DNA of 59,117 bases from positions 1 to 59,117 of the IMG/VR virus record IMGVR_UViG_3300025530_000011; one strand, given 5' to 3'. The stretch is from a virus. Taxonomy: Duplodnaviria > Caudoviricetes. This document shows, in pieces, positions 58,146 through 58,410 of this stretch (the first letter of the stretch is position 1; every line of letters starts with the position of its first letter). The notes beneath the pieces were generated by a model, which saw only the letters and a list, made by a program, of their open reading frames with translations, had not been told where the DNA came from and ran no database searches. The translations under genes were made by a program, and so were the position numbers.

Positions 58146-58328
58146 ATGAAGGAATACTTAACACAAGATCGTTTTTCAAAAGAATATAATTGGCTAATAA
58201 AATCAAAATCGCCATATTTGCTACAACATGCAACAAACCCAGTAAATTGGTTGGAATGGTCGCCAGAAGCATTCCAAAAAGCAAAAAGGGAAGGTAAGGC
58301 TGTATTTGTGTCCATTGGCTATTCCTAG
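58146..58328 (+). CDS. phage-borne replacement N-terminus (60 aa) of YyaL-like thioredoxin-domain protein
   Basis: [24 protein letters not shown]...[24 protein letters not shown]-rich codons; AAGGAAGTG RBS. Confidence 0.85.
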
Positions 58329-58344
58329 CCTTCGGGCTATGGAA
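58322..58344 (+). promoter_or_regulatory. C(UUCG)G hairpin containing the UAG; T4 gene 60-like bypass signal
   Basis: TTCCTAGCC-TTCG-GGCTA(T)GGAA: 9 bp with one bulge. Confidence 0.7.
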
Positions 58345-58359
58345 AAATTGAAAAAATAA

Positions 58360-58410
58360 TAAGAATAGGATGTATACAAGATTTACATGTCATTGGTGCC
58401 ATGTAATGGA
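58360..58410. other. probable attR junction (crossover near 58385-58390)
   Basis: Composition switch; host reading frame begins here; 58364-58386 matches 55061-55083 (integrase promoter) at 20/23. Confidence 0.65.

Follow-up and report, generated by a model that had tools for sequence, protein, structure and literature searches.

A candidate translational bypass over the attachment-site scar of a serine-recombinase element that splits yyaL

Introduction

How can a host gene that has been cut in two by a mobile element, whose own attachment arm does not code for protein, still be translated into one full-length product? The question is raised by the right end of a viral DNA of 59,117 nt (the whole stretch that was analysed, termed the window hereafter), in which the first codons of a yyaL gene and its remainder are separated by a short non-coding gap. 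The initial annotation proposed that the gap is the scar of an attachment (att) site and that ribosomes pass over it in the manner known from gene 60 of phage T4. Comparison of the junction with its relatives leads us to consider it probable that the element repairs the split yyaL by gene 60-like translational bypassing of the att scar. The argument rests on the joint, covarying conservation of a stem-loop and a Shine-Dalgarno (SD)-like word together with a match of the landing to the take-off codons. Our confidence is held down because the landing codon of the window is only wobble-compatible and because an in-frame ATG offers a fallback.

The junction in the window

The right end of the window contains the following features.

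58146..58325, + strand: element-borne N-terminal piece of YyaL, 60 codons, matching PF03190 positions 2-47, last residues VSIGYS
58345..58366, + strand: A/U-rich spacer of the gap, containing the resumed-frame TGA at 58349-58351
58370..58372, + strand: ATG in frame with 58385, the rival start of a C-terminal fragment
58385..59117, + strand: remainder of the host yyaL, matching PF03190 positions 48-162, GC 0.503, running out of the window

The small open reading frame (ORF) is preceded by a AAAGGAAG-type ribosome-binding site located ~7-10 nt 5' of its ATG, and its last codon, TCC at 58323-58325, is directly followed by TAG at 58326-58328. Its GC content of 0.361 lies near that of the 5 kb upstream (0.314), while the downstream host part has 0.503; overall, GC is ~30% up to the junction and 50% beyond it. 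The AT-rich 60-codon N-terminus with its own ribosome-binding site, described in the initial annotation, was thus seen again on re-reading. Small proteins 78-88% identical to the 60-residue piece were found elsewhere by protein search. Host coding resumes at 58385 with ACA TGT CAT TGG TGC. The Pfam family PF03190 (DUF255, YyaL type) is matched by the two pieces at positions 2-47 and 48-162, contiguous to the residue, and CHWC, the CxxC motif, is encoded by the second piece within this match.

A contig from an RNA library, which carries an uninterrupted host gene, diverges from the window exactly 5' of 58385. It reads ...GGCTATTCA before that position, which encodes GYS with TCA as the host serine codon. 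This contig is the empty attachment site (attB), joining at 58385, and contigs of four RNA-library runs cover the window from 58385 onward; none of these contigs reaches into 57900-58384, and they showed no joints. With the abutting PF03190 matches and the join of the empty site, the claim that SIGYS-TCHWCH is complete, with zero residues lost, is borne out.

The gap spans 58326-58384 and is 59 nt long (3x19+2), so that the frame is shifted by two. All three frames are closed within it, frame +1 by TAA, and TGA 58349-58351 is the last stop in the resumed frame; direct reading confirmed the earlier description of an out-of-frame gap with this TGA. A single frameshift or readthrough of the stop codon was rejected, since the gap is closed in three frames and the gap lengths of the family fall in all three frames, and decoding of the stop as selenocysteine or pyrrolysine was rejected on the same grounds. 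The SD-like AGGATG at 58367-58372, 9 nt 5' of TTT 58382-58384, and the in-frame ATG 58370 are both present in the sequence as had been stated; AGG directly abuts this ATG with zero spacer.

A family of related junctions

A search for small YyaL N-terminal proteins (33-105 residues) gave 642 matches among 645 candidates. Among the matches listed from this search, which was made without a stop pattern, GYS forms the C-terminus in 111 of 120, and these come from many Bacillota genera. A scan of one genome per species, based on an alignment of the closest small proteins, yielded 79 loci. Thirteen of them carry 14 junctions with the build GYS, stop, gap, TCHWCH (window excluded), and two more reach a contig edge immediately after the stop. 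The junction pattern was further found at no fewer than 118 loci, that is at least 118, on metagenome contigs. All sources pooled, at least 136 rows were collected, at least 106 of them unique. The stop present in 106 of 106 is built in, as the search pattern required a stop after the take-off codon.

Gap length includes the stop at one end and, at the other, the triplet that precedes the resume codon. Among the 106 unique junctions, gaps range from 18 to 59 nt and occur in all three frames, with that of the window being the longest. We divide them into long gaps of 35-59 nt (n=28, including the window), gaps of 23-25 nt (n=7) and gaps of 18-22 nt (n=71). The small ORF is intact, with the YyaL hallmark residues, in 93 of the 99 junctions having enough upstream sequence.

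The element and its attachment site

The element in the window encodes a large serine recombinase, and parts of its attachment site can be recognised at the junction.

55084..56628, + strand: large serine recombinase of the element (Pfam Resolvase, Recombinase, Zn_ribbon_recom)
58367..58381, + strand: putative left arm of attP, recombinase binding, assigned from its position and its likeness to the arm at locus L206
58385..58404, + strand: common core of attP and attB, 20 bp, coding TCHWCHV, with the dyad centre at TG 58394-58395

Recombinase homologues adjoin 17 of the 136 junction rows, in a position immediately upstream of the small ORF or, on the opposite strand, immediately downstream of it. 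Other genes of the window, as judged by Pfam, encode a Mrr-type nuclease, DnaB- and RecJ-like proteins, a gyrase B/A pair, a ribonucleotide reductase fragment and a TnpB-like protein, a gene content that we take to be SPbeta-like. The window contains no tRNA genes, and an element-borne tRNA-Ser was rejected on this ground. Viral contigs searched with the recombinase and the N-terminal alignment contained zero relatives; a search of viral contigs with the junction pattern gave 2 matches.

The window holds the attR half of the site, and the attL end lies outside it. Its end would be where a large serine-recombinase element lying within the host yyaL has its right junction (attR), with the recombinase crossing over inside the 20-bp stretch that codes for TCHWCHV. 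From 58385 on, the window and the contig with the empty site agree, which is consistent with the start of the core. YyaL-like coding ends after this 20-bp stretch, with unrelated DNA beyond, in 21 of the 106 unique junctions; these are attP or hybrid forms. Four of the 21 diverge inside the core or look frameshifted and were dropped, and the remaining 17 attP-form relatives were used for a mirror test, in which each position left of the resume codon was compared with its mirror position right of the core. Positions -4 to -15 are complementary in 0.53-0.71 of the 17, positions -1 to -3, i.e. the landing triplet, in 0.18-0.35, and positions beyond -16 are at chance except for a single 0.59 at -25. 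The half-site of attP is thus an imperfect inverted repeat of 10 (core) + 3 + 12 nt, ~25 bp, which is the known size of serine-integrase attP halves. The dyad centre, around which the symmetry was measured, was read from the sequence as the TG of the Trp codon, and the crossover would presumably take place at this TG, 58394-58395.

The integrase arm that had been suspected within the gap therefore stands, since complementarity to the far arm extends over the 12 nt preceding the last triplet in the 17 attP-form relatives. In the window, the 5' edge of the putative arm is formed by the SD-like AGGA 58367-58370. With a half-site of this composition, the shortest gaps (18-22 nt) are little more than stop and arm. 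The landing triplet, being unmirrored, is not constrained by the symmetry of the site, and a landing triplet fixed by half-site symmetry was rejected by the same values at -1 to -3. We also note that many short gaps, inspected by eye, contain a GGTTAY word five bases further out than the GGNTAY of the host gene. A 5-bp shift between the zinc-ribbon motifs of attP and attB is known, and the position of GGTTAY in the short gaps would fit it.

Since the left arm of attP has to be unlike the host sequence, coding for the protein is closed to it. On this view the element therefore supplies a promoter, a ribosome-binding site and YyaL codons 1-60 of its own, located directly ahead of the arm.

Signals around the gap

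The start and end of the gap are marked by the following features.

58322..58344, + strand: take-off stem-loop with a UUCG tetraloop, local energy -11.6 kcal/mol, z -2.9
58323..58325, + strand: proposed take-off codon UCC (Ser), the last sense codon, pairing with GGA 58341-58343 in the fold
58326..58328, + strand: UAG stop within the stem, from the sequence and the predicted fold
58382..58384, + strand: proposed landing codon UUU, the triplet before the resume codon

RNA folding reproduced the UUCG hairpin reported earlier: TAGCCTTCGGGCTAT at 58326-58340 is predicted to form it, and pairing of UCC with GGA extends it. The likeness to the T4 gene 60 hairpin proved to be complete over this length, as TAGCCTTCGGGCTAT is identical in 15 of 15 nt to the start of the gene 60 gap in GenBank record NC_000866, where the annotated bypass region has the same 15 letters immediately 3' of GGA, the take-off codon. 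The chance expectation of this 15-mer in the window is 0.03. At least 116 viral contigs contain it as well, all of them without a YyaL gene, and alone it is neither specific nor diagnostic. Because the 15-mer is common in viral contigs, its identity with T4 is best explained by convergence on the shortest hairpin with a UAG start and very high stability. There is no alignment with T4 beyond the 15-nt hairpin, and blastn of 58100-58420 against phage records gave short chance matches only. Taken as a whole, the 96-nt region folds no more stably than its shuffles (z -1.13). No terminator-like sites were found in 57850-58500, and an intrinsic terminator at the hairpin was rejected, as this interval holds no U-tract terminator. 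The alternative hairpin that had been pointed out at 58317-58330 exists, in that GGCTA (58317-58321) can pair with TAGCC (58326-58330) in the window, and this type of pairing is the minimum-energy fold in two relatives, L124 and L135, both with UUCG.

The initial annotation called for related prophages to be checked for conservation of both the UAG hairpin and the gap length. When the junctions were aligned, the hairpin turned out to be kept in gaps of 35-59 nt and absent in short ones, and the length varies from 18 to 59 nt. Within the first 28 nt after the take-off codon, the stem-loops of the long gaps have a mean energy of -12.2 kcal/mol and a mean z of -2.9 (n=28), whereas the 78 junctions with gaps of 18-25 nt have on average no hairpin (mean z 0.1). 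The stop of the long gaps is fully paired in 17 of 28 and has two or more nucleotides paired in 23 of 28, through UAG-CUA in 12 and UGA-UCA in 3. The take-off codon of the same 28 is paired as UCC-GGA in 5, UCG-CGA in 5, AGC in 2 and UCU-AGA in 1. As read from the predicted folds, these changes of codon and partner are compensatory. The loops are mostly of the UNCG type (UGCG in 7, UUCG in 2, plus two with UUCG where a competing fold won), and the rest of the gap in the long-gap class has an A+U content of 0.70.

An SD-like word was defined as a 4-mer of AAGGAGGT located 4-13 nt 5' of the landing triplet, with the expectation taken from shuffles. Such a word is present in 26 of 28 gaps of 35-59 nt (7.2 expected; modal spacer 8) and in 6 of 7 gaps of 23-25 nt (2.1 expected); gaps of 18-22 nt show no excess (6 of 71, 8.3 expected). 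The AGGA of the window lies 11 nt 5' of UUU, compared with the 5-7 nt of the mini-SD criterion for gene 60, and borders the recombinase arm. Owing to this position at the edge of the arm, conservation of the word may owe something to the recombinase. Reading of the attP-form rows, as distinct from a count, places a purine word just outside the mirrored arm. The stem-loop over the stop codon and the SD-like word each have other possible reasons.

[quoted passage not shown] In the family, 33 of 106 junctions (15 of 28 long, 18 of 78 short) have a landing triplet that belongs to the tRNA of the take-off codon, against 0 for the control triplets 3 and 6 nt further upstream. None of 5000 permutations reached the observed take-off and landing values, figures that overstate significance because the junctions are phylogenetically not independent. 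On average, 2.93 of the 3 landing positions are pairable in the long gaps when G-U is allowed; a same-tRNA landing codon is absent in 13 of these 28, mostly with TTT in its place. The landing triplets of the short gaps mostly match at 2 of 3 positions, and four of them are TGA.

The second base of the landing triplet follows the class of the take-off codon. With TCN take-off, it is C in 46, T in 16 and G in 1; with AGY take-off, it is G in 41 and A in 2. TTT as landing triplet occurs after TCC or TCT in 13 unique junctions, after TCA in 1, and never after TCG or AGY, a distribution that fits pairing of a GGA anticodon with UUU through two G-U pairs. As the rows are related, near-identical gap bodies with different take-off class were compared too, and the second landing base switches with the class (TCN versus AGY) in 10 of 10 such pairs, which come from about five gap families. 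Both triplets are borne by the element and the landing triplet is free of att symmetry, so that re-pairing of the peptidyl-tRNA would be the simplest cause of this covariation. In variants of gene 60, landing can succeed with minimal pairing.

Proposed mechanism

The hop itself, its efficiency and the tRNA involved are what we infer from these comparisons. In the proposed scheme, the ribosome would translate the element-borne piece up to the serine codon UCC at 58323-58325 and would then have UAG in the A site, with the stop and the take-off codon both belonging to the UUCG stem-loop. Peptidyl-tRNA-Ser would detach, and the ribosome would slide across 58326-58381, i.e. the hairpin, the A/U-rich spacer and the attP arm. 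The SD-like AGGA would aid placement, and the tRNA would re-pair at UUU 58382-58384. Decoding would then restart at ACA 58385 to give full-length YyaL with the sequence ...SIGYS-TCHWCH... at the junction.

Whether the scheme extends to the whole group we regard as evenly balanced. The wider reading is of a Bacillota-wide serine-recombinase family, hundreds of 90% clusters in size, whose elements fuse a 'first exon' to the host yyaL by hops of 18-59 nt over their own attP arm. It includes short hops that lack a hairpin and land with two of three pairs, scars that have outlived the element as the only working yyaL of a species, and convergence on the 15-nt hairpin independently of T4.

Selection on the two halves and alternative explanations

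Ten genomes were searched whole. The split junction holds the sole YyaL N-terminus in 8 of them; the other 2 contain truncated copies or tandem remnants, with no intact native N-terminus among those read. Several loci with a sole N-terminus have no recombinase within 6-8 kb, and one has a 45-residue recombinase remnant; the recombinase-free loci look like scars left after decay or loss of the element. Two Heyndrickxia species (loci L117 and L162) share a junction, with homology beginning ~160 nt before the small ORF. Between them, the N-terminal piece has dN 0.032 and dS 0.79 (dN/dS 0.04), the C-part has dN 0.105 and dS 1.13, and the gap of 25 nt is identical at 21 of 25 positions. In one of the two species, a stop lies three codons ahead of the resume codon, with no start in between. 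Heyndrickxia camelliae and H. shackletonii possess yyaL in split form only. Judged from these substitution rates, both halves are under purifying selection in the two species, and have thus long been kept as coding sequence in a gene that is conventionally unreadable. The peptide before the take-off site is conserved, as it is in ordinary YyaL.

Purifying selection on the N-terminal piece also fits a two-chain protein, in which the 60-residue piece ends at UAG, a C-terminal fragment starts within the gap at ATG 58370, and the two assemble non-covalently. The window's ATG is indeed in frame and precedes the resume codon by 5 codons, 38 of 106 junctions contain at least one ATG, GTG or TTG in frame, and at L120 the second junction shows AAAGGA followed after 7 nt by ATG. 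ATG itself is found in only 16 junctions, window included, and AGG abuts the window's ATG without the spacer of a ribosome-binding site. The possible alternative start named in the initial annotation is accordingly real in the window. In 68 of 106 junctions, the stretch from the last in-frame stop to the resume codon offers neither ATG nor GTG nor TTG in frame; a stop lies 0-1 codon ahead of the resume codon in many, and the close relatives of the window with TTT landing are mostly without a start. Independent initiation with retention of the CxxC site is thus not the rule of the family. Startless junctions such as L162, L119, L124, L126 and L136 keep an intact C-part ORF of 622-629 residues, and two chains leave unexplained why the landing triplet tracks the take-off codon. 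We consider a two-chain protein quite improbable. The pieces may also not be joined at all, the small ORF being made alone or serving as a mere leader, the stem-loop stabilising or ending the transcript, and the host part being silent or starting at a Met after CHWCHV without the CxxC motif, with the gene whole only after excision. An unjoined state is the usual one for genes split by serine-recombinase elements such as SPbeta and skin, stem-loops overlapping stop codons are common, and the covariation of the stem with codon choice would then follow from coding constraint. The hallmark residues kept in 93 of 99 junctions and the low dN/dS of the small ORF are unexpected of a mere leader, and its last residue is exactly the one before host resumption in those 111 of 120 proteins among the matches listed. 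Moreover, 8 of 10 genomes have their sole N-terminus at the split junction and retain an intact C-part; a U-tract terminator is lacking, and the covariation of take-off and landing triplets is left without a reason. This alternative we hold to be unlikely.

Removal of the gap from the RNA, followed by religation before translation, is suggested by a gene for an RtcB-type RNA ligase just upstream of the small ORF at L117. Among the junction loci searched, RtcB was found only near L117 (L196 is the same place), and none is encoded in the window, so RNA ligation was rejected as a general mechanism. The 18-59-nt gaps are without known intron features, and excision of the gap from the RNA seems to us a very remote prospect. 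Translational bypassing, as put forward in the initial annotation, is the best supported of these readings.

Comparison with known systems

Temperate phages are known to rebuild their target gene with a duplicate end, e.g. the 3' ends of tRNA genes in the case of tyrosine integrases. The present element is similar in that it replaces the displaced part of the host gene. The known replacements are seamless, with a coding core common to attP and attB, whereas here a non-coding arm must be skipped. Large serine-recombinase elements that split genes in Bacillus include SPbeta in spsM, phi3T in kamA and skin in sigK. They share with the present element the type of recombinase, insertion inside a coding sequence and, as we take it, an SPbeta-like gene content. 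The split genes in those cases are whole only after excision, and the accessible accounts describe no replacement exon or recoding.

Similarities to T4 gene 60 include a take-off codon immediately followed by a stop, a stem-loop enclosing the two, the same 15 nt, a gap brought by a mobile element, an A/U-rich gap and, with its spacing of 11 nt in the window, a candidate SD-like word before the landing codon. The differences are also considerable. The gene 60 gap is a MobA-associated bypass cassette in a topoisomerase gene, whereas the case here involves yyaL and a serine-recombinase element, shows no homology to it and is supported by comparative evidence. The take-off codon here is for Ser rather than Gly or Asp, the gap is 59 instead of 50 nt, the landing codon of the window is non-cognate, most of the 3' gap is a recombinase-binding arm, and the host belongs to Bacillota. 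The features of the gene 60 cassette are given in section 10 of the preprint by Manning and Atkins (10.1101/2022.08.31.505936), and the relevant text of this preprint reports homologues of gene 60 only in topoisomerase genes of Myoviridae.

In Streptomyces phage Hau3, the gene for terminase is likewise a candidate for a hop in a temperate phage of Gram-positive bacteria, for which a stem-loop and an SD have been proposed. As far as the accessible text of that report goes, its gap is ~7-10 nt, is triggered at the rare sense codon UUA, lies inside a phage gene and has no link to an att site or a host gene (PMC10732093). The 'byp' inserts of Magnusiomyces mitochondria differ in that they are passed by mitochondrial ribosomes with an unused codon in the A site and are not tied to site-specific recombination; in the portion of a 2016 review available to us, they are described as independent of mRNA context (PMC5009743). 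The same portion of this review states that counterparts of bypassing "have long been presumed" but are scarce, with few utilised cases (PMC5009743).

The initial annotation knew of no description of bypassing used in this way, and our full-text literature searches, in which subscription journals are thinly covered, likewise returned no description of bypassing over an att scar or of yyaL repair.

Significance

Efficient long-distance bypassing has so far rested on one phage gene and its homologues. If the reading proposed here is true, bypassing would gain a biological reason, namely that a mobile element repairs the gene it splits even though its attachment site cannot code, and would extend into the chromosomes of Gram-positive bacteria. 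Dissection of the mechanism could then use over 100 naturally occurring versions with different gap lengths, hairpins, SD words and landing codons. Annotation would change as well, in that small ORFs labelled "DUF255" and yyaL genes labelled "truncated", in their hundreds, would turn out to be the halves of one gene.

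Genes carried by the element and at its boundary

Three features were assigned by Pfam in the window, namely a TnpB-related gene, a pair of gyrase genes, and a gene on the minus strand that sits between the recombinase gene and the small YyaL ORF (58146-58325), the element-borne N-terminal piece of YyaL.

Features assigned by Pfam in the window
33455-34843, TnpB / IS605 OrfB-like protein, within the element
46608-50728, gyrase B and gyrase A pair, carried by the element
56697-57911 (minus strand), protein with MerR-type HTH, Mrr_N and Mrr catalytic domains

The gyrase pair is a type II topoisomerase, the same enzyme class as the T4 subunit gene that holds the classic bypass. 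A further ORF, at 40359-41759, matches the N-terminal domain of ribonucleotide reductase in Pfam and only positions 1-212 of the 523 of its barrel domain. The reductase gene looks interrupted; an intron, an intein, or an inserted endonuclease gene may be responsible. In Heyndrickxia camelliae (L117, 6071-7294), the small ORF is immediately preceded by a gene for an RtcB-type RNA ligase; none was seen at the other junction loci searched or in the window.

Alternative pairing at the proposed take-off site

At the proposed take-off site (58317-58330), TAGCC has two possible partners, which are an upstream GGCTA formed by the Gly-Tyr codons and a downstream GGCTA. Folding of the relatives L124 and L135 placed TAGCC with the upstream GGCTA in the minimum-energy structure. 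The two pairings are a possible switch between the states before and after take-off.

Composition of the junction

The N-terminal piece of the related locus L304 is nearly identical to that of the window, whereas its gap and hairpin are unlike those of the window and belong to the type found in L123. It seems that the coding piece recombines independently of the gap. Many of the gaps of 18-22 nt, e.g., those of L236, L211, L316, and L255, display GGTTAY ~8 nt before the codon at which host yyaL resumes, which is five bases further out than the GGNTAY of the host gene; both features were noted by eye. This offset looks like the register shift between attP and attB of serine integrases.

Tandem junctions and a probable decayed element

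Locus L120 contains two junctions, at 630 and 3733, separated by 3 kb, and the N-terminal piece was matched five times within ~21 kb of G010 (locus L136 and L327-L331), a genome searched whole. These tandem arrangements suggest that insertion has occurred more than once at a single core, the 20-bp stretch coding TCHWCHV that is common to attP and attB. In the genome of L124, a second, truncated copy of its N-terminal piece lies 6 kb upstream (L201, ~1500-1640), and a 45-aa C-terminal remnant of a recombinase directly precedes the junction ORF (L124, 7847-7981); each of these points to a decayed element.
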